Below, one piece after another: positions 46,200 through 62,276 of a DNA stretch of 64,000 bases. The first letter of the stretch is position 1. Every line of letters begins with the position of its first letter. The notes beneath the pieces were generated by a model. It was not told where the DNA came from, ran no database searches, and saw only the letters and a program-made list of their open reading frames with translations. The position numbers and the translations under genes were made by a program. Source of the stretch: a virus (Duplodnaviria; Caudoviricetes); the IMG/VR virus record IMGVR_UViG_3300048920_000392, positions 7,593 through 71,592 of that record; one strand, given 5' to 3'.

Positions 46200-46244
46200 C
46201 TCATAATCCTTTGGTTCCAGGTTCGAATCCTGGTGGGCCCACCA
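46200..46244 (+). repeat. att site: 3' half of a tRNA with CAT anticodon (Ile2/Met type), anticodon loop to CCA
   Basis: CTCATAA-TCCTT-TGGTT-CCAGGTTCGAATCCTGG-TGGGCCC-ACCA; the 5' half of the tRNA is absent here. Confidence 0.9.
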
Positions 46245-46357
46245 CATTGAAGTCCGACGACGTCCAGGGTTGTCCGAGCGAAGCGCGGAAACGCAAGGAA
46301 TTGAGCGATCTGCCGTCCGTCAGCGTCCATCTGCGTCCACTTGCATCCGGCAAGAAA

Positions 46358-46422
46358 GTGAGTCAGGCTGTGAGCCAAGGGTCGGGAATTTCCTACCCCG
46401 ACTCACTGGCGGATGACTCACA
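46358..46422. repeat. Probable integrase arm-type sites GTGAG(T/C)C
   Basis: GTGAGTCA 46358, GTGAGCCA 46370, inverted GACTCAC 46400 and 46416; GTGAGTCAGG again at 59836. Confidence 0.5.
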
Positions 46423-47636
46423 TGCTCACCGACACCAAACTGCGCGCACTGAAGGCAAAGGACCGCCCCTACCGGGTCGCGGATTCCAATGGCCTTTGCA
46501 TAGAGGTGCGACCGTCCGGATCCAAGGCATGGCGCTACCGCTACAGGTACGCCTCCAAGGCGAGCATCGTCACCATCGATGAGTACCCGTCGATGTCGCT
46601 GCAGCAGGCTCGGGCCGAGCGTGACAAGCTGCGAGCGTTGCTGCGAGGCGGGGCTAACCCGGCTCACGTCGCCAGGGCCGAGCGAGCGGCTCACGCTGAC
46701 CGTGTTAACAGCACCTTTGGGGCCATCGGCCTGGAGCTGCTAGCCAAGCGGGCCAAAGAGGGGCTGTCCCCAGGCTCGGTAAAGCGCGAGCGGCGCCTGA
46801 TTGAAAAGGATTTGGCGGCAATCGCTGCTATGCCTATCACCGACGTAACCGCCCCTATCCTTTTGGCGGCCCTGCGTAAGCTTGAGCAGCGGGGTGTGGT
46901 CGAAACCGCCCATCGAGCGCGGTCCCATGCTGGCCGGGTCTTCCGCTATGCCCTGGCAACCGGGCGTGCCGAACGGAATCCTGCAGAGGACTTGGCCGGG
47001 GCGCTCGAACAGCCCAGGACTAAGCACTTCGCAAGCCTCACAGACCCCGAACAGATCGGCGAACTGCTGCGGGCCCTGCATTCCTACCAAGGCTCTCCAG
47101 TCACCCAAGCGGCCCTTAGGCTTGCCCCTTTGCTCTTTGTGCGCCCCGGCGAGCTTCGTGCCGCCAAGTGGGCTGACATTGACCTAGATGCCGGGGAGTG
47201 GCGGTACGTCACCAGCAAGACGAAGACCCCCCATATCGTCCCCCTGTCCGACCAGGCCGTGCAGGTGCTTGCGGAGCTGCAGCCGCTGACCCGGCGCAGT
47301 GAGTACGTGTTCCCGGGCGTCCGGAGTGCGTCTCGGCCCATGAGTGAGAACACGATCAATGCCGCCCTGCGGAACCTCGGCTTTGACGGAACAACCATCG
47401 TCGGCCACGGCTTCAGGGCAATGGCGCGGACGGTGCTGGACGAGGTGCTGGGGTTCCGTCCGGACTACATCGAACACCAGTTGGCGCATGCCGTACGCGA
47501 TCCACTGGGGCGGGCGTACAACCGCGCCACCCATCTGCCTGAGCGACGCAAGATGATGCAGGCATGGTCTGACTACCTGGACACCCTCCGTGAGAACGGC
47601 CGCAAGGTCGTCCCGCTGCGGAAAAACCGGGCCTAA
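46422..47636 (+). CDS. int: P4-family tyrosine integrase
   Basis: MLTDTKLRALKAKDRPYRVADSNGL, LFVRPGELR, HGFRAMART, QLAH...AYNRA. Confidence 0.96.
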   Translation: MLTDTKLRALKAKDRPYRVADSNGLCIEVRPSGSKAWRYRYRYASKASIVTIDEYPSMSLQQARAERDKLRALLRGGANPAHVARAERAAHADRVNSTFGAIGLELLAKRAKEGLSPGSVKRERRLIEKDLAAIAAMPITDVTAPILLAALRKLEQRGVVETAHRARSHAGRVFRYALATGRAERNPAEDLAGALEQPRTKHFASLTDPEQIGELLRALHSYQGSPVTQAALRLAPLLFVRPGELRAAKWADIDLDAGEWRYVTSKTKTPHIVPLSDQAVQVLAELQPLTRRSEYVFPGVRSASRPMSENTINAALRNLGFDGTTIVGHGFRAMARTVLDEVLGFRPDYIEHQLAHAVRDPLGRAYNRATHLPERRKMMQAWSDYLDTLRENGRKVVPLRKNRA

Positions 47637-47748
47637 AGGCTCACCTACAAGGGAGGAACGAAAAAGTAGAGGCACAGAAACAAAGCGGCCGAGAAAGGGG
47701 CTGGAACCCCTAGCTCGGCCTACCAAAACCGACTATTAGGAGTCGATC

Positions 47749-48051
47749 ATGGATCGCAGCATTATAGAACCTGCGCGTGAACGGGCGCGCTTGACCTCGA
47801 ACACCCCCGGCAGCGCCGGATCCACCGGGTGCCACCCGCCCCTCCGCCTTTGGGGCGAACGCAAGCAAACGCAGGCGAACGCAGCCCCTCCCTCCCGAAG
47901 CCTGCAGCTCTGGCTGGCCACCCACGGGGAGTCCAACCTGTACTGGGCGTGCGCACTTTTGTTTGCTACTGGTGTGCTGCTTGCACTCCTTGGCGTGCCG
48001 GTAGCAACGCCCTATCTGGTCATGGGGGGGCTGTGCCATGCGAATCAGTGA
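47749..48051 (+). CDS. Small hypothetical protein with C-terminal TM
   Basis: AGGAG SD; LYWACALLFATGVLLALLGV hydrophobic end; overlaps the next start. Confidence 0.45.
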   Translation: MDRSIIEPARERARLTSNTPGSAGSTGCHPPLRLWGERKQTQANAAPPSRSLQLWLATHGESNLYWACALLFATGVLLALLGVPVATPYLVMGGLCHANQ

Positions 48052-48700
48052 CCTCTCCGCATCAACTGATCCGATTGACCGCCTTGTGGCGATGGGCGTC
48101 CCTGTGCGGGCACTGGTCGCTCTAGAGCTTGGCGGGGTTGAGTGGCTTGCCCTTCATCGGGACGAGCGCTTCCGCCTCTGCTACTACGACGAGAGTGGAG
48201 CTGTAGCCACCCAGGACGTGGATGCCGTGGGGCTTGTGCTGAGAGCTCAGGAATTGGGCTGGACGGCCATGCGAGATTTGGAGCCGAGCTCCAGTCCCTG
48301 GCTCTTCGACCAAGCCTCCTACCACCTCCGCCATGGGGTCCATTGGTACGCATCGGCCTTCGACGGGACCGACGAAATGCTGCCTTTAGGCTTCCCGGAG
48401 AGGGAGCTGAAACGCGCCGCCAGGGAGCAGGAGCGGCAGATCGCAGCTGACCTGAAGGCTATGGAAGCCAAAGCGAAGGCTGCAGCCCGCGCAGCGAAGG
48501 CTGCGGCCCGTGCGCGCAAGCGGGAGGATAAGGGGGCCCGCGCATGGCTGATCGAGTACAGCGCGCAGTGCCAGCTGGATAAGGCAAAATCAAACGGCAC
48601 TCCCCTCTCAAGGGCACAGGCTCTGAGGGTGGCGCGGAAGCTGGTTGACGGCATTGCCGACAGGGCAGGGCGACTTGAGCGGAAGGTAATCGGCGCATAG
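48038..48700 (+). CDS. Hypothetical protein
   Basis: 220-aa ORF with coiled-coil C-terminal half. Confidence 0.6.
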   Translation: MRISDLSASTDPIDRLVAMGVPVRALVALELGGVEWLALHRDERFRLCYYDESGAVATQDVDAVGLVLRAQELGWTAMRDLEPSSSPWLFDQASYHLRHGVHWYASAFDGTDEMLPLGFPERELKRAAREQERQIAADLKAMEAKAKAAARAAKAAARARKREDKGARAWLIEYSAQCQLDKAKSNGTPLSRAQALRVARKLVDGIADRAGRLERKVIGA

Positions 48701-48721
48701 CCGAGACAGGGAGCACGAGCG

Positions 48722-49492
48722 ATGGCACGAAAGCCAATTGACACCGAAGGCGGGCACACCCTGCTAACAGCTGCAGAGTGGTTAGCAGTCGAGTACGTGT
48801 TGGACTACATTCGACCGCCTCCGGGTCGCGAGCGTTCTACGACTTCGTACTCAGTCCTCGCTCGTCTCCTTGCCGTGCGTTCCGGCCGGGCGCTGTGGGC
48901 ATTGAACGCCATTCGTTCCCGTCGCGCGGAAGACTCCGTGGTGGAAGCGCTGTCCAACAATTTCAGCGGTTTTCCGGACGTGGATGAGGTGATAGGCCTT
49001 ATGACAGCCGTCGAACGTGCACGCACAGGCTTTTCCACGGCGGCAGTAAGTCAGACGGAGCGCAAGCGCAAATCGAAGGCGGTCGCCGCTGCGGCGAGAG
49101 TCATCGCCGAAGCGCTTGGGCATCCGGCTATTCAAGGCGACCTTCAGTCTGCGCGTTACATGCTCAAGGAGGCTGGAGGGAATTTGGAGCGTCTGCCCTC
49201 GCGCCTGAACCAGGAGACTTTCGAGTCCTTGGCGATAGTGGCGGACGCGATGGTGGACCTGCCGAAATTTGATGGGCAAGCAGACTCTCCAAGCGCGCCC
49301 AAGCTGTACTTTCTGCGGCGCATGACGCTGCACTGCGTAGGGTCTTACGGGCGGCCCATGCGCTCTCTCGTCTTGGCCTTGGCCGCGCTCTTCTTCGATG
49401 TCTCAGACATGACTACCAATGACTTGGCCAACTTCGCTCCATCCGGGGGGAAGAAAAGGACTCCTAAGGGCGGAAAATCCTCCCCTCAATAA
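48722..49492 (+). CDS. Hypothetical protein upstream of alpA
   Basis: GGGAG SD; 256-aa helical ORF. Confidence 0.65.
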   Translation: MARKPIDTEGGHTLLTAAEWLAVEYVLDYIRPPPGRERSTTSYSVLARLLAVRSGRALWALNAIRSRRAEDSVVEALSNNFSGFPDVDEVIGLMTAVERARTGFSTAAVSQTERKRKSKAVAAAARVIAEALGHPAIQGDLQSARYMLKEAGGNLERLPSRLNQETFESLAIVADAMVDLPKFDGQADSPSAPKLYFLRRMTLHCVGSYGRPMRSLVLALAALFFDVSDMTTNDLANFAPSGGKKRTPKGGKSSPQ

Positions 49493-49590
49493 TTTAAAGA
49501 GAAGCCTGTGTGTTTCTTCAATTATGCACAGGGTCTGGCATCTTCAATCTGTCCGAAACCGTCCATCCCGGTGCGGTGTAGGGCAATGAG

Positions 49591-49809
49591 ATGCTGCAGA
49601 AATCTCAGCAAGAGATCCCAGAGACCGGCTTCCTTCGGTTGCCAGAAGTCCTCCGGCTTTACCCAATCTCCAAGTCCACTTGGTGGGCTGGCGTAAAGAT
49701 CGGACGCTACCCGCAGCCTTTCAAGATCGGCGAACGCGCAACCGCATGGCGCGCAGAAGATATCCGCGCACTCATAAGCAGCGCCTCCACGAATGGAGCG
49801 CAGCCATGA
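49591..49809 (+). CDS. alpA: AlpA-family regulator/excisionase
   Basis: FLRLPEVL...ISKSTWWAGVKIGRYPQPFKIGERATAWRAEDI. Confidence 0.92.
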   Translation: MLQKSQQEIPETGFLRLPEVLRLYPISKSTWWAGVKIGRYPQPFKIGERATAWRAEDIRALISSASTNGAQP

Positions 49810-50084
49810 GCCAGTACGATTTCAGCGGCCTCACGGCAGAACAGCGCCGGGTGATGGACGCGGGCGGATGGACAGCTGACGGCACACAGGCGGCCCCGTC
49901 CCGCCCTGCTACGCAGACTTTGGTGAGTCGGGGACTTCTTGAGTCCTACACGGCCACCCACGACGACGACCACGGCTCTTACAGGGTAACGGAGTACTTC
50001 GCGCCTCTGGAGGTACGGGCTGCCTGGCTAGCCTTCAAGTCGCGTCTTCCGCAGCAAGCGGAGACGGTGGAGGAGGAGCCGTGA
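49806..50084 (+). CDS. Hypothetical protein
   Basis: Coupled to alpA by ATGA overlap; 92 aa. Confidence 0.6.
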   Translation: MSQYDFSGLTAEQRRVMDAGGWTADGTQAAPSRPATQTLVSRGLLESYTATHDDDHGSYRVTEYFAPLEVRAAWLAFKSRLPQQAETVEEEP

Positions 50085-50605
50085 ACACATGCGACGTCAC
50101 TGACCTTGTTCCTCACCCTCCCTCCGGCCTTTTGGCATGTTTGAAGTCAGGGCGCGTCTTTAACTCTGACGGCGTGGAGGTCGGTATCCAGACATCTGAT
50201 ACCTACGTCAGGATCATCCGCAACGCGACGGCCGCCTGTCCTCGCATCACGTGGTACGCGCATCGGGTGGTGTGGGAGGCCGCACACGGACCGATCCCTG
50301 AGGGAATGCAGATCGATCACCTAGATTGCGACGCGGGCAACAACGCGCTGTCCAATCTGGACCTCGTAACCCCTGCGGAAAACCGAGCCAGACAGGCCCA
50401 GAGAAATCTCCAGCGCTACGGATGCCGATCCACGTACTGCAAGCTCCTGCCGGAGCAAGTGCTAGCGATACGCGAGAGCGCGGACACCATCGCCAGCAAC
50501 GTGTGGGCCAGACGCCTGGGGATCGCGCAGCGCACGGTGAGGCAGATACGCGCTGGTCTGACTTGGATACACCTCCTCGGTGTGCAGTCCAAGAAGAAGC
50601 CGTAA
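50081..50605 (+). CDS. HNH endonuclease with C-terminal HTH
   Basis: YAHRVVWEAAHGPIPEGMQIDHLDCDAGNNALSNLDLVTPAEN; KLLPEQVLAIR...LGIAQRTV. Confidence 0.92.
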   Translation: MNTCDVTDLVPHPPSGLLACLKSGRVFNSDGVEVGIQTSDTYVRIIRNATAACPRITWYAHRVVWEAAHGPIPEGMQIDHLDCDAGNNALSNLDLVTPAENRARQAQRNLQRYGCRSTYCKLLPEQVLAIRESADTIASNVWARRLGIAQRTVRQIRAGLTWIHLLGVQSKKKP

Positions 50606-50674
50606 CCGGCTATCCACCTATCGCCCTTGGGGGGTGTATGAAACGACCGGATAACTGCCGTCTGGCACGTCCTA

Positions 50675-51118
50675 TTGGCCGAGGTAAGGGCGATGGGAGG
50701 TGACCATGTGCAACGAATTTCCGAGAAGAAGCGGCCCCAGGTCAAAGGCAGGGGAAAAGGCCCGCCCTTCCTCTCCATTGAACACCGCATTGCCGATTCC
50801 CATGAGTTCGGGTGCCTTTCCGGGCACGCTGCCAAGCTCCTCCTTGAGCTTGCCCGGCAGTACCGTCCCGGGCGCAACGGGGACATCAGTATCCCGTGGT
50901 CGCTTCTACGGAATCGTGGGTGGCGCAGCCAGGGAACCGTCATGGATGCCAAGCGCGAGCTGCTTGAGGCGGGCTGGATCATCGAAACTCGAAAGGGTGG
51001 CAGGAACAGTTGCGGGCTCTACGCGCTCACCTACTACCCGATTGATGAGTCCCACAAGCATCAAGAGCCGGCCACCCATGTGGCGCCTCATCTGTGGCAG
51101 CAACGGCGCGAACTGTAG
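50675..51118 (+). CDS. wHTH protein, probable replication initiator
   Basis: LSGHAAKLLLELARQY...NGDISIPWS...TVMDAKRELLEAGWI; stop lies in the first iteron-like repeat. Confidence 0.65.
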   Translation: MAEVRAMGGDHVQRISEKKRPQVKGRGKGPPFLSIEHRIADSHEFGCLSGHAAKLLLELARQYRPGRNGDISIPWSLLRNRGWRSQGTVMDAKRELLEAGWIIETRKGGRNSCGLYALTYYPIDESHKHQEPATHVAPHLWQQRREL

Positions 51119-51270
51119 TCGCTATTCGGAGCAACTTGGTCGCTATGCGGAGCAGTGGGTCGAATCCTTGCTCCGCATGCAGACCAAGTTGGTCGCTATG
51201 CGGAGCAGTCAGCCACTTATCCACACCCCCTATTGGTCGCTATGTGCACACCTATCTAGATATCTACCAA
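51116..51270. repeat. Iteron-type origin with DnaA box
   Basis: TTGGTCGCTATGCGGAGCA at 51136 and 51189, variants at 51116, 51233 and inverted at 51169; TTATCCACA at 51217; AT-richer tail. Confidence 0.75.
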
Positions 51271-51313
51271 GCGGAGCGGCCTGCGCACTGGTTGTGATGG
51301 GCTTCTCTGGCCA

Positions 51314-52258
51314 TTGCTACCGGGAGGCCCACCCTTGGACCTGACTCGAACGCGAACAGAACCAGCCATTGCAGGCGGCGTGGATGCTACTAGCACTGCT
51401 ACTAGCATCGATACAACATTGCTAGCAGCATCGGAGAGCAAACTCCCGTCTCGGCCAAGGAAGGGAGGGCCGTGGCAGGAAGGTTCAACCAACGTGGACC
51501 GGGCGTCCCGGGCGGTGGCGGCTGCTTACGGCTGCGGAGCCTGCATGGCGATGGTCTGGCATGCAAGTTGGGTGGAGGTCCCCATAGCCGAGGACGGGAC
51601 AGTGGACCCTGCCGGTTTGGCCATCCACACCCGTGGCGCGGTTGTCCACGACGCTCGAAAGTACCTTCCCAGGGGACGACATGCCCGAGCAGCTGCCTTG
51701 TCCGCTTTCGATGCGGACAAAAGGCGGACAGTGGAAGCGTTCGACAACGCGACAAACATGCGTGCCGACGCGTCAAATCCTGATATGCACGCGTCGAGGA
51801 CGAGGCGCGTCCATGCTTGGAGCAACAAGACCTCCCCAGGCGTTGTGGTGATTCCTGCGGTTCGTCCGGTTCGACCGGTCCTGATGGCGCTCGCGGACGC
51901 CGGCCTGGACGGGCCGCTGGAGGACTGGCTGATGCTCTATGCCGCCCAGCAGCTTTGGCGGTGGCCGCAGGTTGAGCTGTACTTGGTCGCGCTTGGCCAC
52001 GAACGTCACCACGCCCGAGAGGCGGCTGCGCGGCTACTGGGTCTTGGGCGTAGCTACAGGGACGGGGCAGCGAGCGAGGGTGTTAGGGAGTCTGCGTACC
52101 GCAACAGAGTTCGCGCGATTGAGCGGGTCCTCTGGGACTGGCTGGAGCGAGCGAGCTACGCGCTTTTGGAAGAGCTGGGCGAAGCGGGGGACCGCGACTG
52201 GAACGCGGGCGACGGTCTGTTGAGCCCTGGCGCAGGCAGGCCAGTCGCCGGGGCTTAG
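51314..52258 (+). CDS. Hypothetical protein, possible late-gene activator (true start probably downstream)
   Basis: C-terminal HTH-like LLGLGRSYRDGAASEGVRESAYRNRV; N-terminal part runs through non-coding-looking repeats. Confidence 0.45.
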   Translation: MLPGGPPLDLTRTRTEPAIAGGVDATSTATSIDTTLLAASESKLPSRPRKGGPWQEGSTNVDRASRAVAAAYGCGACMAMVWHASWVEVPIAEDGTVDPAGLAIHTRGAVVHDARKYLPRGRHARAAALSAFDADKRRTVEAFDNATNMRADASNPDMHASRTRRVHAWSNKTSPGVVVIPAVRPVRPVLMALADAGLDGPLEDWLMLYAAQQLWRWPQVELYLVALGHERHHAREAAARLLGLGRSYRDGAASEGVRESAYRNRVRAIERVLWDWLERASYALLEELGEAGDRDWNAGDGLLSPGAGRPVAGA

Positions 52259-52418
52259 CGAGATATCCCGGTACTGCTGCCGCTTTCCGGGCTGGGAGCT
52301 ATTTACACCCGCCAAACGGTGAAAGTAATAGGGGCTCCAACTACCCAAGGGCGAGCCCCGGCGGCGACCACTTCGGTGGCGCCGCCTTCCCTTCTTCGCG
52401 CATGTCACGCACCGCTCC

Positions 52419-52451
52419 GTGAGTACTCAGTGAGTCCTCGGTGAGTACTCG
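52419..52451 (+). repeat. Three tandem 11-bp repeats upstream of the ejection operon
   Basis: GTGAGTACTCA / GTGAGTCCTCG / GTGAGTACTCG. Confidence 0.8.
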
Positions 52452-52488
52452 GCAAGCGATGCGCAACTTGAGCATAGGACAGCAATTC

Positions 52489-54183
52489 ATGAATTTCAGC
52501 CCACGAAACTTTTTCGGCCGTATGACCCCCGGCTGGCAGGATATGAGCGAGCAGGATCAAGGCGCTCTTACGCGTCGCGGCCTACTGGCAGCCGGTCTGG
52601 GGATGCTCAGCGCCAAGAATGGTGGCAACTTCGGCGCCTCTCTCAGCGACGGCATCCAGTCGGGGTTGCTCGCGGTCGATCAAAGCGTTCAGGGGATGGA
52701 GAACGCCCGATACAAGAAGGAAATACTTGCCCGAACCCGGCAGGGCATGGAGCGCAACGCCGCCATCGAGCAGGCCCAGCAGGGCGTGCTGAATTCTGAC
52801 GGCTCGATCAATAGCGAGAAGTGGGCGGAGCTGGCTCGGTACGACCCGGATGGCGCGCTGGACCTCCGCAACAAGGCGCAGCCCCAGGCCAAATGGGACC
52901 CGATGGAGATCGCCTACAAGAATCCGCGCACTGGAGAGCCCGGATATCTCAACGTGCTGCGCAACCTGGCAACCCAAGAACTGAGAGACCTGCAGGGCAA
53001 CGTCATCAGTGAAGGCTTCCTATCTCAGGATCCACTCGGTACGCAGCCGCAGATGCCGACAAGCGGTTTCTTGTCGAAGGACATGGTTCCGACGCTGGAA
53101 CAGGCCGTAATGCAGGTGGAGTCCGGCGGCAATCCGGCGGCGGTGTCGCCCAAGGGGGCTATGGGCACGATGCAGACCATGCCCGGCACGCTGGTTGATC
53201 CGGGTTACGGGGTCGCTCCGGCACGGGACAGCTCGCCGGGAGAAATGGAGCGCGTGGGCAAGGATTACCTGCAGGCCATGTTGAAGCAGTACGGCGACCC
53301 GCAACTGGCGCTCGCCGCCTACAACTGGGGGCCGGGGAACGTGGATCGGGCCATGAAAACCCATGGCGGAAACGTCGATGCGGTCCTCGCCAACGCACCG
53401 GCAGAGACTCGGCACTATGTTCCCAAGGTCTTGGCACTCGCTCAGGGTGGGCAGGACTCGCCCCAGATCGGATGGAAGCCTGCCAAGGCAGACAAGGAGC
53501 GCGAGAGCTACCGCACGCTCAAGGTCGACGAGATTGCATCCCTTGGCCTGCCGTCTGGAACCGTAGCCCAGATGGGGCCAACCGGCCAGATCCAGATTGT
53601 TAACAAGCCCCGCGACATGCCGGCAGGTGGTGCGAGACAGGTCATCGACAACGGCGACGGAACCACGACCTACATCCCGGCCGGTAAGACCAGCGAGGGC
53701 GAGCGCAACGCATCCGGCTTCTTCAATCGCATGGTCGAGGCGAACAACGAGATGCAGCGCCTGGAGGGGGCGGGATACGACCCGACGAATCGTCGCGACT
53801 ACTACACCGCTGGCGGCGAAGTCCTTAACCCGCTTGCCACTGACGAGGGGCAGCAATACCGCCAGGCTCAGAACAACTGGGTGCGTGCGAACCTCCGAAA
53901 GGAATCCGGCGCAGCGATCGGTAAGGATGAAATGGAGCAGGAACGGCGGACGTACTTCCCGATTCCCGGCGACTCGCCTGCGGTGATCGCACAGAAGGCC
54001 CGAGCCCGTCAGGTAACTGAGCGTGGCATGCGTTCTGCTGCGGGTAGCGCACTGCCGGCTCCCGTACCGCAAGGGGCGAATGCGGCGCGAGGTGTGAACA
54101 GCCCTGCGCCCGGCACCGTGGAGGGTGGCTATCGCTTTAAGGGGGGTAACCCCGCTGACAAGAAGAATTGGGAGCGCATCTGA
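52489..54183 (+). CDS. Virion DNA-ejection protein with SLT lytic transglycosylase domain
   Basis: QVESGGNPAAVSPKGAMGTMQTMP, ALAAYNWGPG, ETRHYV; Gly/Ala-rich LLAAGLGMLS N-terminus; C-terminal GGYRFKGGNPADKKNWE. Confidence 0.85.
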   Translation: MNFSPRNFFGRMTPGWQDMSEQDQGALTRRGLLAAGLGMLSAKNGGNFGASLSDGIQSGLLAVDQSVQGMENARYKKEILARTRQGMERNAAIEQAQQGVLNSDGSINSEKWAELARYDPDGALDLRNKAQPQAKWDPMEIAYKNPRTGEPGYLNVLRNLATQELRDLQGNVISEGFLSQDPLGTQPQMPTSGFLSKDMVPTLEQAVMQVESGGNPAAVSPKGAMGTMQTMPGTLVDPGYGVAPARDSSPGEMERVGKDYLQAMLKQYGDPQLALAAYNWGPGNVDRAMKTHGGNVDAVLANAPAETRHYVPKVLALAQGGQDSPQIGWKPAKADKERESYRTLKVDEIASLGLPSGTVAQMGPTGQIQIVNKPRDMPAGGARQVIDNGDGTTTYIPAGKTSEGERNASGFFNRMVEANNEMQRLEGAGYDPTNRRDYYTAGGEVLNPLATDEGQQYRQAQNNWVRANLRKESGAAIGKDEMEQERRTYFPIPGDSPAVIAQKARARQVTERGMRSAAGSALPAPVPQGANAARGVNSPAPGTVEGGYRFKGGNPADKKNWERI

Positions 54184-56603
54184 TGGCAGGTCCGTGGGAA
54201 AAGTACCAGCAGGAAGTGGAAGTTGCCGCGTCACCTCAAGGCCAGCCCGACCAAGGCACGAGCAAAGGCCCGTGGGCCAACTACGCGGCTCAGGCTGGCT
54301 CGGCTGACAGTGAGATGCCGATCACTGACCTTCCTGCCGTGCAGGCCCAGCGGCCTGACTTCAGCGGTGTAACGGCTACTGTTGACTCCACGGCGCAGAA
54401 GGTCGCGCCCGATGGCTGGACGTATGGCGTTGGCCGCGACGCGGCGTTCGGCGTGCGTTCGGCGATACAGGGCGCTGGAAGTCTAATCGGGGCCGCTGGC
54501 GGCGACGCCTTCAACAACTACATCGCCAATCCCATCGCGAGGGCCGTCGGGTTGCAGGAGGCGCGGCCGTATCGCGAGGAAGCGCAGGCATTTGCCAATA
54601 CCCTCGGCCTCCCCCAGGCGCAGACGTCGGGCGACCGCGTTATGGGGGACGTCGGCGAGGGCCTGACCGGCACTGCCTTGACGTTGGGGGCGGGTGGCTT
54701 GGCGAGTGCAGGGCGTGGTCTTGTACAGCGGACCGGGCAGTTCTTCGCTGCAAACCCCATCCTCCAGACGGCAGCGACCACCACCGGGACGCTGGCAAGC
54801 TCGGGAGTTAAAGAGGCTGGCGGCGGACCTGGCGCTCAAGTGGCGGCTGGCCTTGCGGCCGGGTTCGCGCCTGGCACGCTCGCAGCACTCGTTCCGGGCA
54901 TGCGCGGCGGCATCGTGCCGGCTGCTGTGGCCCAAGGGACGCGAGGAGCACTGAGGGGGAGGAACGCGGTTGGCGCGCCGGTCACCTCTGCAGACATTCA
55001 GCAGACCGTGGGGGACTTCGCAGCCGTTGGCGCAACTCCTAGCGTGGGGCAGGCTACTGGTGGTCGTTTCCCCCAGGCCGTCGAAACGATGCTGGGGAAC
55101 GTCCCGGGCGGTGCGGGCCCCATTGCCCAGCTTGGTGCTAAGCAGTCCGCCGCAACAGGACAGGCGGTCGAACAGTACGCAGTGGGGCTGTCTCCGCGTG
55201 GCCGACCAATGAGTCCTGAGCAGGCGGGCCGCACCATCTTGGAAGGTGTTGAGGGCAAGTCTCCCGTAGCGTTCGTACCCAAGACCGCAAAGAAGGCGGA
55301 GGAGCTTTACGACCGGGTTTCGAAGCAGATCGCCCCTGGCGCGCGAGTGCCCGTAGAGAACACCAAGCAGGCGCTATCCGATCTTAACGCCTCCATCGAA
55401 GGTGCGCCCAATGTTGCAAAGCTCTTCCAGAACGCCAGGATCCAGGGCATTGAGGCTGCCTTGGGAAAGGATATCGGCGGTGCGGAGGCGGCTCTGCAGC
55501 GGCCTGAGGTGCGCCAGCAGGCAGATGAGCTTAGGCAGCAGTTGAATGCCCAAGCACAGCAGGCCAGGGCGGAGAACACGCGCCTCCAGACACTGGGGAT
55601 GCGTGCCTCACAACCGGTCGCGAGTCCTCAGCAGATTGACGAACAGGTTAAGACCGCAATCGCAGGGATGGCGGACAACCAGATCCCGTATCAAGCACTG
55701 ACCAAGCTGCGGACGGTCGTGGGGAAGGAGCTAGACAACTACTCCCTGGCGGACAACGTGCCTCGGGACAAGTGGAAGGCGCTCTACGGTGCGCTGACAC
55801 GCGATATGGAGGCCGCCGCGACCACCCCGGAAGCCCGGCAGGCTTGGAAGCGCGCAAACGCCTACTACGCTGCCCGAAGCAACCGCATCGACTCTATCGC
55901 CCACGTGGTGGACAAGAGCGGCGGTCCGGAAGCCGTCTACAAGGCGGCATTTGGCAACACGAAGGAAGGCGCCACCACCCTGCACGCGGTCATGCAGTCG
56001 CTTCCCAAGGAGGCGCAGCGGGAGGTGTCAGCGTCGTTTATCCGCCGAATGGGCCGGGCGACGGGCAGCCAGCAGAACGCCGACAACGACGTTTTCAGCA
56101 TGGAGACGTTCTTGACCAACTGGGCAAACATGAGCCCGGAGGCCAAGCGGGTGTTGTTTGACCGCCACGGAATGGGCTTCCGCCAGGATATGGACAAGAT
56201 CGCGCGGATGACAGAGAAAATCCGGCAGGGAAGTGCAGTGTTCCGCAACCCGTCTGGCACGGGTCGGCTCATCTCGCTCATCACCCAGTCGGCGGGTACG
56301 GCGAGTAGCGCGGCAACTGCAGCGATGTCCGGTAGTCCGCTCCTGGGGGCCGGAATCGTAGCTGGTTCGGCTTCATTGGCCGCGGCATTCAACGGTCTGG
56401 GCCGACTCATGACCAGCCCTGGCTTTGTGCGCTGGGTGGCGAAGAACGGGGAGAAGCCAGTCGGTGAATTGGTCGCTCAGACTCAGATGTTGCGGCATGT
56501 CGCCGAGTCAGAAGAAAACGACGACGTAGCCGAGCTGGCAGATCAGCTCGAGGCTATGAAGCAACAGCAAACCCCGCGTAGACAAGCACTACCAATGCGA
56601 TGA
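54183..56603 (+). CDS. Large DNA-ejection/transfer protein (P22 gp16/gp20-like class)
   Basis: MAGPWEKYQ start, Gly/Ala-rich amphipathic region, long helical C-terminus ending NPSGT...LMTSPGFVRW. Confidence 0.75.
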   Translation: MAGPWEKYQQEVEVAASPQGQPDQGTSKGPWANYAAQAGSADSEMPITDLPAVQAQRPDFSGVTATVDSTAQKVAPDGWTYGVGRDAAFGVRSAIQGAGSLIGAAGGDAFNNYIANPIARAVGLQEARPYREEAQAFANTLGLPQAQTSGDRVMGDVGEGLTGTALTLGAGGLASAGRGLVQRTGQFFAANPILQTAATTTGTLASSGVKEAGGGPGAQVAAGLAAGFAPGTLAALVPGMRGGIVPAAVAQGTRGALRGRNAVGAPVTSADIQQTVGDFAAVGATPSVGQATGGRFPQAVETMLGNVPGGAGPIAQLGAKQSAATGQAVEQYAVGLSPRGRPMSPEQAGRTILEGVEGKSPVAFVPKTAKKAEELYDRVSKQIAPGARVPVENTKQALSDLNASIEGAPNVAKLFQNARIQGIEAALGKDIGGAEAALQRPEVRQQADELRQQLNAQAQQARAENTRLQTLGMRASQPVASPQQIDEQVKTAIAGMADNQIPYQALTKLRTVVGKELDNYSLADNVPRDKWKALYGALTRDMEAAATTPEARQAWKRANAYYAARSNRIDSIAHVVDKSGGPEAVYKAAFGNTKEGATTLHAVMQSLPKEAQREVSASFIRRMGRATGSQQNADNDVFSMETFLTNWANMSPEAKRVLFDRHGMGFRQDMDKIARMTEKIRQGSAVFRNPSGTGRLISLITQSAGTASSAATAAMSGSPLLGAGIVAGSASLAAAFNGLGRLMTSPGFVRWVAKNGEKPVGELVAQTQMLRHVAESEENDDVAELADQLEAMKQQQTPRRQALPMR

Positions 56604-56733
56604 GCAGGACGGGAATAGCAACAACCAGCGACACGAAGGCGAACCCGTAACCGGCATCTTTGCGGTCGTCAGATTTAGCCCCCTCCTCCCACGACTGGGG
56701 CAGGGGGTACTGGGTGTTCTTCCAAGCATCCAT
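56554..56733 (-). CDS. Small single-TM protein antisense to ejection genes
   Basis: MDAWKNTQYPLPQSWEE...GFAFVSLVVAIPVLLIALVVLVYAGFAV. Confidence 0.6.
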   Translation of the reverse strand: MDAWKNTQYPLPQSWEEGAKSDDRKDAGYGFAFVSLVVAIPVLLIALVVLVYAGFAVAS

Positions 56734-56837
56734 TGCAGTCAGTCCCAAGGGTTGGCGACGCCAGCATACACCCGCCCCGGGCGACGAAATCTCACCAATA
56801 AATGAATGGGCTAAACCAATAGCCCAAGGAGAGGCAT

Positions 56838-57545
56838 GTGGCACAACGCAACTTTTTGGGCCGGACGACCGGCAGGGTCGGGGAGCGGTTCCTGTCGGGC
56901 TCGAACAACTACGACCCACGGACGGGGCAATACCGGAACGTGATGCCGGGGCTTATTGGTCGCGCGGCGCAGACGGTGATTGGTGCCTTTGGCGGTCCGC
57001 TAATCGGGGCGATAGCGGGCAGGGGCATCAGCAAGATGGTTGATAGGTACGGGAAAGACCCCGGGTTTGTGCAGGCGGAGTCGATTCCTATCCCTATGGA
57101 CTGGCGCGCCCCTCAAATCACTCGAGGTGAATTCGCTGCTCCTTCGGCCACGCCGCCCACTACCGCCAACCTCAGCCTTGGCGCTCAGTCCCCCGGTGGA
57201 GATTGGGCCGGCTACCTGCAGGACGCTGGCTCGGCCAACAACTTTGGCAATCAGGGCTTCATGCGCCCGGGGTCGTTCACCAACTGGTCGCCCACTAGCG
57301 GCTGGGGCAAGCAGCTCATTGCCCAGCAGCCAACGCCCGGATCACTGGGCGGCTTCGGTAACAACGTAGGCGGCTTCCTGAGCGGCGGAGCGGGTGGGGC
57401 GAGATCTCCAGTTGCCTCGGCAGGCTCAAGGGCTGGCCTTACCCGTGCTGGCGGCTCTGCTGCCGGCTGGGTTAACGCACTGAACACCGGAGAGGTCCTG
57501 GGCAAGTTCCAGGGCGACCCCGAGAAGTACACCCGAGCAACCTGA
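56838..57545 (+). CDS. Small Gly-rich DNA-ejection/pilot protein (gp7-like class)
   Basis: AGGAGAGG SD; GAFGGPLIGAIAG hydrophobic glycine zipper; Gly/Ser/Asn-rich; 235 aa. Confidence 0.6.
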   Translation: MAQRNFLGRTTGRVGERFLSGSNNYDPRTGQYRNVMPGLIGRAAQTVIGAFGGPLIGAIAGRGISKMVDRYGKDPGFVQAESIPIPMDWRAPQITRGEFAAPSATPPTTANLSLGAQSPGGDWAGYLQDAGSANNFGNQGFMRPGSFTNWSPTSGWGKQLIAQQPTPGSLGGFGNNVGGFLSGGAGGARSPVASAGSRAGLTRAGGSAAGWVNALNTGEVLGKFQGDPEKYTRAT

Positions 57546-57560
57546 GGGGGGTTTAGGGCT

Positions 57561-57803
57561 ATGCAGGGGAAGTCGAAGACTGCAGGGGTTTGTGAGGCGC
57601 TGAGCCCTGCGGCAGTGCGAGGAATCGCCGCTGTGTTGCTTCAAGCCAATGCAGGAAGGCGGGTCCACTTCGGTGGGCTCGACCTCACTGAGATGGCTGG
57701 CAGGTACCTCGAAAGGCATGTCCAAGAGGTGGGGTTCGACGCCGCAGACAAGACGTTCCGCAAGCAGGGATTTGCATTGGTAACAGATGAAAACAATAGG
57801 TGA
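57561..57803 (+). CDS. Hypothetical protein
   Basis: 80-aa ORF between ejection genes and terS. Confidence 0.5.
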   Translation: MQGKSKTAGVCEALSPAAVRGIAAVLLQANAGRRVHFGGLDLTEMAGRYLERHVQEVGFDAADKTFRKQGFALVTDENNR

Positions 57804-57808
57804 GAGCT

Positions 57809-58099
57809 ATGCCATTCGTTCCAGGGCAATCGGGCAACCCTAGCGGGCGGCCCAAGGTGGATTTCGAGGTCCGGGAGCTGGCCCGGGAACACGGCCGAGA
57901 GGCTATTGAGCGCCTGGTGGAGATCATGCGGGGGGACAACCTTTCCCTCGCCCGGGCGGCCTGTGAGGCGCTGCTGGATCGCGGCTTTGGCAAGCCGGTC
58001 CAGTCGGTTGGCCTGGATCCAGACTCCGTGCCTGTCCAGGGCATCACGGTGACCTTTGTCCAGCCCGACCCTGCTGAGCCGGAGACTGACCGTGACTGA
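57809..58099 (+). CDS. Terminase small subunit-like (DUF5681 motif)
   Basis: MPFVPGQSGNPSGRPK...VRELAREH...EALLDRGFGKPVQ. Confidence 0.8.
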   Translation: MPFVPGQSGNPSGRPKVDFEVRELAREHGREAIERLVEIMRGDNLSLARAACEALLDRGFGKPVQSVGLDPDSVPVQGITVTFVQPDPAEPETDRD

Positions 58100-58400
58100 C
58101 GACCAAGAGCCAATCTCTACTGTAGATACGGATAGCTCAGTGGAGCCTTGGGACGGGGTCACCTACGTGATCTATGCCGCCGAACGGCAGTGCCTGCCTG
58201 AGGACTTTGAAGGGCGCCTAGAGGTCGCGCGGCAGGCCATAGGAGAACCCTGGCGGGCCTTCGACCTCCACGACCCGCTCTGTCCTAGGGCGGAGGGCAG
58301 GGACTGTACCTGCGGACTGGTGAGCGTCTTCACGAACGACCGGTGGGTGGCGTATGTGGACGCGTTCCATGCCGTGCAGGCGATTCATGGCCTGCAATAG
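58092..58400 (+). CDS. Hypothetical protein with H/C-rich motif
   Basis: GTG start overlapping the terS end; HDPLCP...CTCG. Confidence 0.5.
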   Translation: MTDDQEPISTVDTDSSVEPWDGVTYVIYAAERQCLPEDFEGRLEVARQAIGEPWRAFDLHDPLCPRAEGRDCTCGLVSVFTNDRWVAYVDAFHAVQAIHGLQ

Positions 58401-58710
58401 AAGCGGAACTTAGGGAGCGCTTTTACGGTCCACGTCTCTAGCCACGCTTGTCCGACGTCTCCCGGTGCTAGAATTCGCCGCTTTCTGCAGCACTTATGCC
58501 AAACAGCCGGCCCGCGCGCCCCTCTGGGGCCCTTCCGCATTTAAGTGAAGGCTGAACGCAAGGTCCGTTGACAGGCTCTCTCAGGCCACGCGACAGCGAT
58601 CTGGGACACTGGGGCCTTGAAGTTGAAAAAGTTATCCACAGATCTGTACACAGATTGGTGCTAGCCTTCCTCTGGGGAAGTAAGGCACCACGTGCCGAAG
58701 GAGGTGCGAC

Positions 58711-59178
58711 ATGCAAAATAACGTTTTTAGTGTCGCCAACGCTTTTATAGAATTGGCTAAGCGTGACCATGTGCCGATCAGCAACATGATGCTGCAAAAG
58801 TTGCTGTACTTCGCGCAAGGGCACAGCTTGGGTCTTCGTGGCGAGCCACTTGTTGATGAGGCTCCGGAGGCTTGGACATATGGGCCAGTCTTCCCTGACG
58901 TCTACCATGCTTTCAAGGGTTATGGTGGCGGTCCCATAAAATTCGCCCACACTTATTACGACCCAAATGAGGGGGGCTATGTCCTGCCTCCTAGGGTTGA
59001 TAATGATGCCGACCGAGCGATGATCGAGGCGGTATGGAACGCCTATAAGAACCGCAGTCCGGTTGAGCTCTCCAACATGTCGCATGTTAAGGACGGCCCG
59101 TGGGACAAGGTGTATGGCACATACAGAAATGCTGACATCCGAGATAGTGACATGCAGGCTTTCTTCAAGGCGCGCTAA
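58711..59178 (+). CDS. Panacea (DUF4065/SocA-like) antitoxin
   Basis: LQKLLYFAQG...EAWTYGPV...LSNMSH...GPW; GGAGG SD. Confidence 0.92.
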   Translation: MQNNVFSVANAFIELAKRDHVPISNMMLQKLLYFAQGHSLGLRGEPLVDEAPEAWTYGPVFPDVYHAFKGYGGGPIKFAHTYYDPNEGGYVLPPRVDNDADRAMIEAVWNAYKNRSPVELSNMSHVKDGPWDKVYGTYRNADIRDSDMQAFFKAR

Positions 59179-59190
59179 CAGGGTCGGTCT

Positions 59191-59757
59191 ATGGGTCACA
59201 AGGACAGTGGTAGCGGCTCCTCTCCGCACGTTGCCTCGTTGGACGAAACGGTCAGCAGGCTCGCTGACACGATCTCCCATGCGCCTGCAAGCGATCACGC
59301 GCCATCCGCTGATGCGGAACTGAAATTCTTCGGCAAGAGCGATAAGGCCAAGGAAAAGCAGCGCGGCCGGAAGGTCAAAAATGACCGTCTACAGCAAGAC
59401 ATGGATCTGCGTGAAAAGCACGCCGAAAAGGCGGTGGGTCTTGCTCAGGTCGCCGTCGGCTGTTGGATTTTCCTGTTCGCGTTTGCAGGCTGCATGAATC
59501 TCGCACAAGGTAAGCAATTTTTAACAGACAAGGCGCTGGTCACCCTCACTGCGGGTGCGACCGTGAACGTCATCGCAGTGTTCTTAGTGGTGGTGAAGGG
59601 TCTGTTCCCGCCGCCGATGGCTCGACCTGCCAAGGCGAAGAGGGGAGTCAAGCGCAGGAAAGTAAAGGAAGCTTCGGAGAGTCAGATGACCCCGCCGAGC
59701 AGTGGCACCAGGAAAGCCACACTCCGAGCGGCAAATGGGCGCCAGACCGGGCAGTAG
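59191..59757 (+). CDS. Two-TM putative toxin partner of Panacea
   Basis: QDMDLREKHAEK then TM1, LTDKALVTLTAGATVNVIAVFLVVVKGLFP TM2; basic tail. Confidence 0.75.
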   Translation: MGHKDSGSGSSPHVASLDETVSRLADTISHAPASDHAPSADAELKFFGKSDKAKEKQRGRKVKNDRLQQDMDLREKHAEKAVGLAQVAVGCWIFLFAFAGCMNLAQGKQFLTDKALVTLTAGATVNVIAVFLVVVKGLFPPPMARPAKAKRGVKRRKVKEASESQMTPPSSGTRKATLRAANGRQTGQ

Positions 59758-59940
59758 CTCCGAGCGGGGAAGGGGTTTCCAAGGGCTAAGGAACCGTTAG
59801 GCAACAGTTACATAACGGCGTGATGCGATTCAAAGGTGAGTCAGGGCTGATACCGCGGCTCCCCTGGTGCTTCTGGCGCTCGCGCGGAACGCCTACTACC
59901 AGTCTCGGAATGTGAGATCCCCGTCCGTATGCTGCCGGGC

Positions 59941-60237
59941 ATGCTCCCTCCCGACTTCCGATGGCGATCAGTGGCCAGCCGCCCCGACGGGCTGCCGGAC
60001 GCGCTGCTCTGTGATGGCGTGGAGGTACTGCGCCTCAGCCAGCGGGTAGACGACCACGTGTGGTGGGTCTGGGTAGACAGACACATCCCCTCCGACAGGC
60101 CGAAGGGCCGGACATGCACCAGCTACGAACGGGGCGTGGTCGGCTCGGAGCTTTGGGCGATCCGGCACCAGGGCCGTCTACGCCTTGAGGTACAGCAGCA
60201 GCGCCGGCTTCGCGACGCACTTAAGAGGCCGGGATAG
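59941..60237 (+). CDS. Phage-associated hypothetical protein
   Basis: MLPPDFRWRS...WWVWVDRH...ELWAIRHQGRLR; Trp-rich 98 aa. Confidence 0.65.
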   Translation: MLPPDFRWRSVASRPDGLPDALLCDGVEVLRLSQRVDDHVWWVWVDRHIPSDRPKGRTCTSYERGVVGSELWAIRHQGRLRLEVQQQRRLRDALKRPG

Positions 60238-60380
60238 CTGTATCGATAGTCCGAAATTACGCAAACGGCTTCAAATGCGTTGCGGCACTAGTGGATTCGA
60301 GTCCCAGAATCAACGCCGGACGACAATGGAATCTACTTTGGTTAGGCTGCGCGCGACGAATCTCATAAGCGGGTGCGGCA

Positions 60381-60617
60381 ATGAGCGAACACGATGGCCA
60401 GATACCATTTGAACTCCGGGCGATAAATGCCGATGCAGTCGGAGAGCTACTGGGAATTGCAGGCCGCACCGTCCTGGAAACGGTGGCGTGTAGACCCGAC
60501 TTCCCCGTGAGGGTGTCCATGCGCCCAGCCACGTGGGTGGCAGGCGAAGTGTTGGCTTGGCGAGACGCTAACCGAGCCGGTCGGCGAGTTCGTCGGCGTC
60601 GGGTTGATGGCGAGTGA
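60381..60617 (+). CDS. AlpA-like/excisionase-like HTH protein
   Basis: INADAVGELLGIAGRTV...RPDFPVRV...WVAGEVLAW. Confidence 0.75.
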   Translation: MSEHDGQIPFELRAINADAVGELLGIAGRTVLETVACRPDFPVRVSMRPATWVAGEVLAWRDANRAGRRVRRRRVDGE

Positions 60618-60692
60618 GTGGGTCTACCTAGGCGGCGCTAGACAGGGCGGCACAGCCCCGCGATAGTTCAGCTTCGCCAAGCGGGCTACTCA

Positions 60693-61307
60693 ATGAGCAT
60701 CCTCAACGTAATCCTTAGCCCGGACAAGCTGCTGGTCGCGGTCGATACCTTGGCCCAAGACGCGGCGACGGGGGAGCTTTCTACCGGCGCCAAGCTGCTG
60801 CTAATCCCCCAGCACAACTTGATTCTGGCGACCCGAGGCTCGGCCCAGTTCTTCTTGAGGCTTTACGAGCTAAGCCTCCAGGCTAGCTTCCGCGCGGACT
60901 TCACCATGGAACAACTCCTGGCAGAGTTCGGCTTGGTCATCGAGAAGTTGTGGCCTGCTTATGAGACGGCGGCGATTCAAGCCGGCATCCCACGCGACGT
61001 TCTTCATAGCGAGCTGGTTCTCGGTGGATGGTCACCCAAGAGCGGCAGAATGGTTGCTACCGCCTACGCCAAGAGTGCTAACGCAAAACCAGTCGTCGTG
61101 CAGCCTCTAGAGGGCGGCTTAGCTTCGCCAGGAGACCCGCTGAGAGATAGGCCGGCCAACTTCGACCCCGCCTGGGTGCTGGATGCTGGGCGGCTGCAGG
61201 CCGCGCACGAGAATGCCCATGTTGGACGTGTGGTGTCGGGCGGCAAGCTGCTCTGTGCCACCCTCACGGCTAGCCAAGCAGTCATATCCGACCTTGGCGA
61301 TTTGTAA
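60693..61307 (+). CDS. Proteasome-beta-like Ntn-hydrolase fold protein (candidate)
   Basis: After Met removal Ser1, Asp17, Lys33, Gly48; C-terminal SGGKLLCATLT resembles the beta-subunit SGG strand. Confidence 0.6.
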   Translation: MSILNVILSPDKLLVAVDTLAQDAATGELSTGAKLLLIPQHNLILATRGSAQFFLRLYELSLQASFRADFTMEQLLAEFGLVIEKLWPAYETAAIQAGIPRDVLHSELVLGGWSPKSGRMVATAYAKSANAKPVVVQPLEGGLASPGDPLRDRPANFDPAWVLDAGRLQAAHENAHVGRVVSGGKLLCATLTASQAVISDLGDL

Positions 61308-61346
61308 CACCGTTCCGTCCAGTGCTCAAAATCCCGCGTCGTAGCT

Positions 61347-62276
61347 TCAGGCCAGCTTTTTGATGGCGTCGGCCAGATGTTCCGGCGCAAGGTGGGCGTA
61401 GCGTCTGGTCATCGCCAGCGAGCTGTGCCCCAGCACCTCAGAAACCGTGTGCAGCGATACCCCGGCCTGCACCAGCCAGGACGCGCATGTGTGTCGCAGA
61501 TCATGCCACCGAACGTGCTCCAAGCCGCAAGCCTCACGGGCTGTCTTCCACGACGCCCGCACCCCGTCATCCGAGACACCCAGCGGCAATCGCTGGGCCA
61601 CGCTCAGCACCTTCGGGTGCAGCGGCACCAACTGCAGCGTCCGCGTCTTGCTGGTCCGATCCAGCCGGAGAAAGCCATCCTTCACGTCGTGATGGGTCAG
61701 TCGCAGCAGGTGCCCCCGCCGAATCCCCGTATACGCCGCCAAGCGCACGTAGTTACCCGCCAGAGGGTTGGGGCATGCCCTCGCTAGCGCCTCGACCTGC
61801 TCGGTCGTCAGGAACGTCTCGCGCGGCTTCTCAGGCAACAGCGCAATCGCCGCTGGCCTTTCCAACCAACCCCATTCCCGCCATGCCATCCGCGTGATCT
61901 GCCTCAGAATCCGGCCCTTGTGGTTCACCGTGGCCGGAGCCTTGCCGATCTCCGCAGCTTTGATCTCCGCCCACACCTGCGACGCCTCCGATAGCTTCCT
62001 GCCGCTGATGTACCGCTGCAGTTTGGCGGCGTGAGCCATGGTCTTCTTCGCTGAGCGAAGCCGGGGCACATGGTCAATCAGCCACTTCTCCAAAGCGTGG
62101 CCGATTAGGCGCTCAGGTTGCTTCCCGGCGGCCTTGTCCTTGTTCGCCGAGAGGAGCTTGACCTCGTAGGCTTTGGCTTCCTTGAACGTCCAGTGGCGAG
62201 AAGTCTTTCTAACCGTTCGTCCACCGTATCCAACGGTAACCTGATAGCTTCCATTGGGTCGCTTTGTGACTGGCAT
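61347..62276 (-). CDS. int: Tyrosine recombinase/integrase (third element)
   Basis: AYTGIRRGH, KTRT, WHDLRHT, LGHSSLAMTRRYAH. Confidence 0.93.
   Translation of the reverse strand: MPVTKRPNGSYQVTVGYGGRTVRKTSRHWTFKEAKAYEVKLLSANKDKAAGKQPERLIGHALEKWLIDHVPRLRSAKKTMAHAAKLQRYISGRKLSEASQVWAEIKAAEIGKAPATVNHKGRILRQITRMAWREWGWLERPAAIALLPEKPRETFLTTEQVEALARACPNPLAGNYVRLAAYTGIRRGHLLRLTHHDVKDGFLRLDRTSKTRTLQLVPLHPKVLSVAQRLPLGVSDDGVRASWKTAREACGLEHVRWHDLRHTCASWLVQAGVSLHTVSEVLGHSSLAMTRRYAHLAPEHLADAIKKLA

Follow-up and report, generated by a model that had tools for sequence, protein, structure and literature searches.

We analysed a window of 64,000 nucleotides, bases 7593-71592 of the 71.6-kb IMG/VR virus record IMGVR_UViG_3300048920_000392, whose nearest relatives are Stenotrophomonas genomes. 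From position 46245 rightwards the window holds an integrated, capsid-less island with a pair of genes related to podoviral DNA-ejection genes. The reading that we favour, and that we hold to be probable by a modest measure, is that the island is a satellite similar to the phage-inducible chromosomal islands (PICIs), belongs to a previously undescribed family of the Lysobacterales, and parasitises temperate podoviruses of the P22/PBR31-like or SU10-like type. The dependence on a helper and the loading of island proteins into virions are what we infer from this gene content. Our full-text searches gave no report of a satellite encoding ejection, injection or internal virion proteins, and to our knowledge none of the P4-like, PICI, capsid-forming PICI (cf-PICI), PLE or PICMI elements encodes ejection proteins.

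An initial annotation of the window had described three internal virion proteins in the island, and two of them held up. The first gene (52489-54183, + strand; longest open reading frame (ORF) from 52441) encodes a 564-aa SLT protein similar to internal virion protein B, which takes the gp20 slot; we refer to its family as SLT580. Its lytic transglycosylase domain (PF01464, 1.4e-17) is intact, as first described, with the ES, GxMQ and AYNxG motifs all kept in the translation. The second gene (54183-56603, + strand; longest ORF, of 811 aa, from 54168) encodes an 806-aa protein similar to ejection protein C, in the gp16 slot, and its family is referred to as E811. The ATG of the second gene at 54183 overlaps the stop codon of the SLT gene, making the two a translationally coupled pair. 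Three podophages have proteins that match the C-terminal 300 residues of the 811-aa protein: in Sphingopyxis phage VSN-002 the product of the final injectosome gene, in Pseudanabaena phage Pan3 an 'ejection protein', and in Rhizobium phage RHph_Y1_10 a 'putative injection protein'. Comparison of the 811-aa protein with PDB sequences gave noise only.

Homologues of the 811-aa protein were found in 13 of 400 genomes of the family. We drew gene maps of 15 neighbourhoods of E811 homologues, and these fell into two classes, complete prophages and capsid-less islands. In the complete prophage of genome G393, the gene order based on PHROGs is terL, a P22-type portal (phrog_156), scaffold, coat (phrog_283), a gp10-like head-closure gene, phrog_1644 and the 'DNA ejection' cluster phrog_598, followed by an SLT580-family gene whose product bears a peptidase or endolysin domain, an E811-family gene and the tail fibre. 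The same gene clusters occur in the same order in G164, G326 and G337. These prophages have head genes similar to those of PBR31, a temperate Xanthomonas podophage for which internal proteins A, B and C are recorded at this place. Internal protein A of PBR31 matches the phrog_598 cluster, and internal proteins B and C have no BLAST similarity to the island proteins. A second type of prophage (G002 contig 15, G087, Xanthomonas campestris L062 and S. maltophilia L063) was found to have terL, a major head protein and an SU10-type adaptor. In these SU10-like prophages the E811 homologue closes the structural module, and an SLT homologue also occupies the B slot of an SU10-like phage (L086). In a Logan phage contig with an SU10-type portal, capsid and adaptor, the ejection slot holds a trio of 297, 477 (Peptidase_M15) and 583 aa, and the 477-aa middle protein shares its N-terminus with SLT580. 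Because of this homology and of the position of the homologues in complete prophages, the SLT and 811-aa proteins appear to be members of the ejection-protein families that fill the gp20 and gp16 slots in local podoviruses. A late position in the structural module was seen for homologues of these two proteins and not for those of the 235-aa and 314-aa proteins described below.

The third gene that had been counted as an internal virion protein (56838-57545, + strand) encodes a Gly-rich 235-aa protein (E235) with a glycine-zipper-like hydrophobic stretch, for which a link to ejection proteins was not detectable. An hhalign comparison with gp7-like proteins was negative, no match was found by tblastn against isolated phages or in the PDB, and the protein atlas gave weak viral leads at 0.86. 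The second most distant E235 homologue (43% identity) belongs to an SU10-like Logan phage (L085), where the order is the E235 homologue, a 54-aa gene, an 89-aa terS-like gene and terL. This position upstream of terL argues against the 235-aa protein being an ejection protein, and the order supports a small-terminase call for an island gene that follows E235. That gene is part of a putative packaging block (57561-58400, + strand) composed of an 80-aa ORF, a 99-aa terS-like protein with a DUF5681 domain (57800-58099, + strand) and an overlapping 114-aa ORF. The DUF5681 homologues of Acetobacter phage phiAX1 and Xanthomonas phage PBR31 are genes of ~100 aa that abut terL, with portal, scaffold and coat following, and the C-terminal 23 residues of the L085 terS-like protein resemble the tail of the island DUF5681 protein (E 0.006). 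The island block of E235, the 80-aa ORF (o80) and DUF5681 seems to mirror the start of a podoviral packaging module. As for the lone terS of the initial annotation, the gene is present, and its product is putatively small terminase-like, a call made from position and homology. The DUF5681 and 114-aa ORFs overlap by 44 nt in different frames (57800-58400), an arrangement that is kept in G001, G002 and G384; they may be separate genes or a single frameshifted product.

Besides the window, at least 12 loci of Stenotrophomonas, Pseudoxanthomonas and Luteimonas show the capsid-less layout, and the identity of their E811 proteins goes as low as 38%. Full synteny was seen in G001 (Stenotrophomonas sp. 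BIGb0135), G002 (a Stenotrophomonas metagenome-assembled genome), G384, G470, G460, G430 and the metagenome contig L084. The large island protein of G001 is 99% identical to that of the window and the one of G002 is 87% identical; integrase identity to the sibling-island copies is 80-99%. The shared order is integrase, o220, o134, HNH, initiator, o314, SLT580, E811, E235, o80, DUF5681, o114 and then variable genes. Among 147 Stenotrophomonas species genomes, 10 have a DUF5681 gene, which in 7 of the 10 is of the 99-100-aa island type. Synteny was examined in six of these seven; the full island layout is present in 6 of the 147 genomes, and a seventh has the island-type terS.

More distant islands keep the layout with other genes in it. 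The S. sepilia island (L053/L054) has an integrase, DUF6387, HTH_17, AlpA, P22_AR_N and HNH_3, then proteins of 247, 484, 772 and 233 aa. The Pseudoxanthomonas mexicana island (L055) has HNH_3, a gp7-like 255-aa gene and proteins of 508, 847 and 226 aa, while the Luteimonas terrae island (L061) has an integrase, an AAA_25/DnaB-like helicase and proteins of 241, 525 and 937 aa. A further Luteimonas island (G256) is located at a tRNA-Lys and carries a Toprim-AAA_25 primase-helicase and a HipA-like cargo pair. In both Luteimonas islands, primase-helicase modules replace the small initiator.

The other genes of the window island had mostly been listed correctly. A 407-aa P4-type tyrosine integrase (46413-47636, + strand; domains Arm-DNA-bind_3, Phage_int_M and Phage_integrase) is followed by three small to medium ORFs of 100, 220 and 256 aa (47749-49492, + strand), the first two of which are kept in sibling islands. 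Next come a 72-aa AlpA-family regulator or excisionase-like protein (49591-49809, + strand; PF05930, 2.3e-7), a type of regulator found in PICIs and also in the S. sepilia island (L053), and a 174-aa HNH_3 endonuclease (50081-50605, + strand; Pfam), which is a core gene of the island family. The HNH cluster (c3) was seen in six contexts, HNH_3 is present in L053 and L055, and the SU10-like phage L085 has an HNH_3 gene ahead of its terS and terL. No capsid, portal, terL or tail family was matched by Pfam, PHROGs or NCBIfam among the island ORFs tested, in agreement with the original description. The terL, portal, scaffold, coat, tail and lysis genes of the complete podoviruses (G393, G164, G326, G002 contig 15, L062, L063 and L085) are absent from the island and its siblings. 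With no capsid, tail or lysis matches and a core of ~12-14 kb, the island agrees with PICIs in these respects.

A winged-helix Rep with an iteron origin had also been described. The iterons were confirmed as a cluster at 51103-51251, a candidate origin with three exact copies of TTGGTCGCTATG (at 51136, 51189 and 51233) and degenerate and inverted copies besides. Six islands have the core GTCGCTATG three or four times at this place, similarly spaced. The Rep had to be corrected to the frame of a 147-aa winged-helix-like protein (50675-51118, + strand), a candidate replication initiator by predicted fold. The overlapping 214-aa ORF at 50700-51344 was rejected as the Rep; it is in the wrong frame, and its translation is S/P/R-rich junk. 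The AlphaFold model of the 147-aa protein, built with nine homologues, has a helix-helix-helix-hairpin core at a predicted local distance difference test score (pLDDT) of 60-86, and Foldseek gave weak matches (E ~0.04 or weaker) to winged-helix proteins, including plasmid initiators. The winged-helix fold is thus a candidate from a mediocre model. Pfam, PHROGs and NCBIfam scans found no primase or helicase in the window island. Behind the iterons lies a conserved 314-aa protein (51314-52258, + strand) of a narrow family found only in islands of this type. It has no PDB sequence match, its hhalign probability against gp7-like proteins or internal protein A is 0.04% (no relation), and its AlphaFold model (pLDDT 38) is unusable.

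Between the 314-aa and SLT genes we found a conserved non-coding element of ~105 nt (52292-52395, + strand), which holds a promoter-like TTTACA-N16-AGTAAT and a GC-rich hairpin. The element is near-invariant in seven islands (also at L004:8125-8228 and L005:8143-8246), while the flanking genes have diverged by 30-40% in protein. No covariation was found in the hairpin, so an RNA structure gains no support, and Rfam and promoter/terminator scans of the island returned nothing meaningful. We conjecture that the element is a helper-responsive late promoter. Three 11-nt tandem repeats (CTCNGTGAGTN) follow the element in the window, at 52415-52450.

The left end of the island was corrected to the 45-nt 3' part of tRNA-Met(CAT) (attL; 46200-46244, + strand), and this junction is shared with a siphoviral prophage to the left. 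The full tRNA-Met is located upstream of the window, left of the siphophage. Because the full tRNA lies there and the 45-nt fragment at 46200-46244, the siphophage and the island are integrated in tandem at one tRNA-Met. In G001, G002, G384 and the S. sepilia contig, the full tRNA-Met lies immediately before the island integrase, and the location at a tRNA-Met 3' end was the same in five genomes, with the integrase at the end of a site-specific element as in PICIs. The right end originally set at 59850 did not hold, being too short and having no att repeat. The right arm beyond it (59929-62846), which consists of o102, o78, o204, a tyrosine recombinase and o123, recurs in sibling islands. Since o102, o78, o204 and o123 are found in the siblings, the island probably extends to at least 62846. 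In G001 and G002 a candidate attR, an 18/19-nt copy of the tRNA end, lies 22.8 kb and 19.3 kb from the tRNA, respectively. An empty-site comparison through the right-flank gene was dropped; synteny at that place is not kept in other Stenotrophomonas genomes.

Several features of the right arm and flank were noted in passing. The recombinase (317 aa; 61347-62300, - strand) is the second tyrosine recombinase of the island, and its G001 copy, which aligns in two pieces that overlap, may be frameshifted. The o78 gene is a small ORF with a suspected helix-turn-helix and no family match. The 204-aa ORF was considered as a terL fragment and rejected, having a weak PHROG match at its N-terminus, none in Pfam or NCBIfam, and being intact in sibling islands. 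The window and G001 share a 2.25-kb stretch (60044-62295) with o78, the 204-aa ORF and the recombinase, which the island of G002 lacks. This stretch ends at GGCCCACCA (62294-62302), identical to the final 9 nt of tRNA-Met, and may represent a nested mini-element. To the right of the island, the start of a pertactin/AC_1-type autotransporter gene (63453-64000, - strand) is cut by the window end; the gene is full length (1136 aa) in L013:7657-11067. This gene suggests that the IMG/VR 'virus' record runs into probable chromosomal DNA.

PICIs are among the closest known systems. Those known have siphoviral helpers and change either the direction of packaging (TerS, Ppi, Rpp) or the size of the capsid. 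Gram-negative PICIs such as EcCICFT073 share with the island a length of ~10-15 kb, an integrase at one end, AlpA, accessory or defence cargo and the lack of capsid and tail genes. Their replication module and origin, and their packaging gene of the small-terminase type, have candidate counterparts in the island. The island differs from them in carrying two homologues of virion-internal proteins, and window-type islands are without a recognisable primase or helicase. The cf-PICIs are satellites that encode some virion parts and have HNH and terS, as would the island with its putative terS. However, cf-PICIs have their own capsid, portal, protease, connectors and terL, and only the tails are borrowed; the island encodes none of these and would borrow everything but part of the ejection apparatus. 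P4-like satellites also have a P4-type integrase with an arm-binding domain, an AlpA-family gene, a tRNA-adjacent site and hotspots of defence cargo. Psu, Sid, Delta, Ash/Eps and the alpha primase-helicase had no Pfam, PHROG or NCBIfam match among the island ORFs, and the P4 helper is a myovirus, whereas we propose a podovirus. The Pseudomonas satellite prophage AH14b (16.8 kb, P4-like, with an integrase and AlpA and a siphovirus helper) likewise carries homologues of a few virion or assembly genes of its helper, but these are tail-assembly and lipoprotein genes and not ejection proteins; its proteins were not found in virions, and it is packaged as approximate trimers in heads of helper size (PMC4936722).

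The island pair itself can be compared with the P22 proteins gp7, gp20 and gp16 and the T7 proteins gp14, gp15 and gp16. In P22/PBR31-like prophages, the SLT580 and E811 families fill the gp20 and gp16 slots behind a gp7-like gene, and, as in T7 gp16, one member of the pair bears a cell-wall hydrolase domain; the adjacent, coupled position of the two genes is a further likeness. In contrast to P22, the pair of the island stands in a capsid-less element, window-type islands have no gp7-like gene, and the link runs via Lysobacterales prophages and three annotated podophages rather than P22 sequences themselves. Published work on P22 shows that gp7 can be exchanged, that gp16 and gp20 function only as partners cognate to each other, that a foreign gp16 is built into virions, and that changing or replacing the gp16/gp20 pair overcomes SieA entry exclusion (PMC10461980). 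This provides a rationale for the gene content of window-type islands, which carry exactly that pair and no gp7-like gene.

On these grounds, the following course can be proposed. When a helper is induced or infects, the island would excise and replicate from its iteron origin, and the conserved promoter element may switch on the ejection pair and the E235-o80-DUF5681 block late. The terS-like protein, perhaps together with the HNH nuclease, would steer the large terminase of the helper to island concatemers for headful packaging into helper heads, as reported for AH14b; about three island copies would fill a 40-kb head. The cognate gp20/gp16-like pair of the island would enter helper procapsids and form the trans-envelope channel in the next cell. 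The payoff could be DNA delivery that is independent of the helper pair, for example by escape from SieA-type exclusion or entry into other cells.

We looked at the genomes for candidate helpers. Another contig of G001 holds a resident P22/PBR31-like prophage, whose A, B and C internal proteins are only remotely like those of the island, and G002 has an SU10-like prophage with an E811 homologue ~50% identical to that of the window. No second DUF5681 gene that could mark a resident helper was found in G001, G002 or G384. The helper need not be resident.

Several results weigh against a podovirus satellite. Ejection proteins enter procapsids before the DNA and would therefore load into helper and satellite particles alike; the pair would not be specific to satellite-filled heads, which makes its selective benefit uncertain and is a weak point of the proposal. 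The non-coding element was not found in the examined prophage loci, so helper control of expression is only a guess, and the terS-like protein of the island is unrelated to the putative terS of the P22-like prophages closest in gene order. No att repeat was found at ~59850 or elsewhere in the window. When the window was searched for exact and fuzzy copies of the 3' end of tRNA-Met, and 58300-64000 was compared with the attL region by short-word BLAST, all that came up were chance-level matches of 9-14 nt. The candidate repeats of G001 and G002 lie past chromosomal-looking genes, including the 1136-aa autotransporter. A maximum-likelihood tree of 16 E811 proteins does not unite the islands in one clade and has them interleaved with prophages; the main island group includes prophage G002 contig 15 (support 95/94), and two prophages cluster with the Pseudoxanthomonas island, which suggests exchange between islands and phages. 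Finally, the island copies of the ejection genes in G213 (C7:182281-184260) and G318 (C33:307582-309570) may be decaying; they have in-frame stops, all of them TAG, most likely from CAG/GAG-to-TAG decay in a GC-rich genome. The SLT-family gene of G318 is also split into two ORFs.

The missing attR, the in-frame stops and the interleaved tree would be expected if the island were the decaying remnant of a defective temperate podovirus that has lost its head, tail and terminase genes, and both ejection genes do have homologues in complete prophages. The initial annotation had reasoned that homologous loci in the form of full prophages would make the island a deletion remnant. Some of them are such prophages, but the island layout is kept across genera and under selection. 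In comparisons of the window with five sibling islands, the ratio of nonsynonymous to synonymous substitution rates (dN/dS) is 0.07-0.12 for E811, 0.06-0.15 for SLT580 and 0.04-0.09 for the integrase, at a dS of ~1-2 (saturated). The two ejection genes are under strong purifying selection, and the low ratios (0.06-0.15) together with the recurrent layout argue against decay. Intact ORFs in a compact layout were found in at least 12 other loci of three genera, an integrase-alpA-HNH-rep order followed by ejection genes was seen in no full prophage, and the replication modules swap (winged helix and iterons for primase-helicase) while the layout persists. We consider a remnant quite improbable.

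The cargo of the islands bears on another alternative. The slot behind the packaging block varies between islands. In the window it holds, in line with the PanAT pair first described, a 155-aa Panacea-domain antitoxin, PanA (58711-59178, + strand; PF13274, 1e-21), and a 188-aa partner ORF (together 58711-59757, + strand); G001 and G002 have other genes in this place. With TIR/SEFIR and PIN genes behind the 226-aa protein of L055 and the HipA-like pair of G256, the islands could be mobile defence islands that move by another route. Their ejection homologues would then be co-opted as decoys or blockers of podophage DNA entry in the envelope, or as an abortive trigger. Entry exclusion is known to act on ejection proteins (PMC10461980), and purifying selection fits any function. 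Against this, an active lytic transglycosylase and a membrane-channel protein would probably be harmful in an uninfected cell, the genes of the pair are linked to a terS-like block that shares its synteny with a packaging module of phages, and a replication origin with AlpA fits an inducible, packaged element. A defence role of this kind seems unlikely, although it deserves consideration.

SLT domains also occur in type IV secretion systems. One could accordingly picture an integrative element that conjugation mobilises and whose SLT protein opens the wall for a transfer apparatus in the manner of VirB1, and one homologue is named 'large polyvalent protein associated domain'. Pfam and NCBIfam scans of the island ORFs had no match to relaxase, coupling-protein or type IV secretion genes, and both large proteins have homologues inside phage structural modules. 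This makes conjugative transfer very improbable, and a satellite of temperate podoviruses is the reading that we retain.

The neighbour of the island (window 1-46244) is a lambda-like siphoviral prophage, as initially described, with terS, terL, portal, protease, major head, tape measure and J genes. It uses the same tRNA-Met site, shown by the 45-nt repeat and a 464-aa integrase adjoining the junction, and one att site is thus common to two unrelated elements in tandem. It is reasonable to suppose from its gene set that this siphophage is not the helper of the island. A HipA-like kinase and a DUF3037-like protein form a cargo pair of the siphoviral prophage (40157-41757), and their homologues (clusters c46 and c47) lie in the cargo region of the Luteimonas island G256 (L039/L040). 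This cassette seems to move between prophages and these islands.

Satellites known so far make their own capsids or interfere with the size of the capsid, the specificity of packaging or late transcription. If a satellite retained the DNA-delivery proteins alone, molecular piracy would have a further, new target, and the islands would be a documented family of podovirus satellites in the Lysobacterales. We put forward more tentatively, as a possibility that we rate below an even chance, that widespread podovirus satellites supply their own gp20/gp16-like pair to helper-built particles and so uncouple entry from the apparatus of the helper. If this is true, satellite particles, and perhaps contaminated helper particles too, could bypass SieA-type exclusion or reach other cells, and the hijacking would be aimed at genome delivery and not at capsid assembly or packaging alone. 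The islands would offer a natural system for studying the recruitment of ejection proteins into procapsids, the co-evolution of gp20/gp16-type pairs and the effects of swapping them on exclusion and host range. With the full layout in six of the 147 species genomes and the island-type terS in a seventh, such islands are frequent enough to be of consequence for gene flow in Stenotrophomonas, and they carry defence and toxin-antitoxin cargo.

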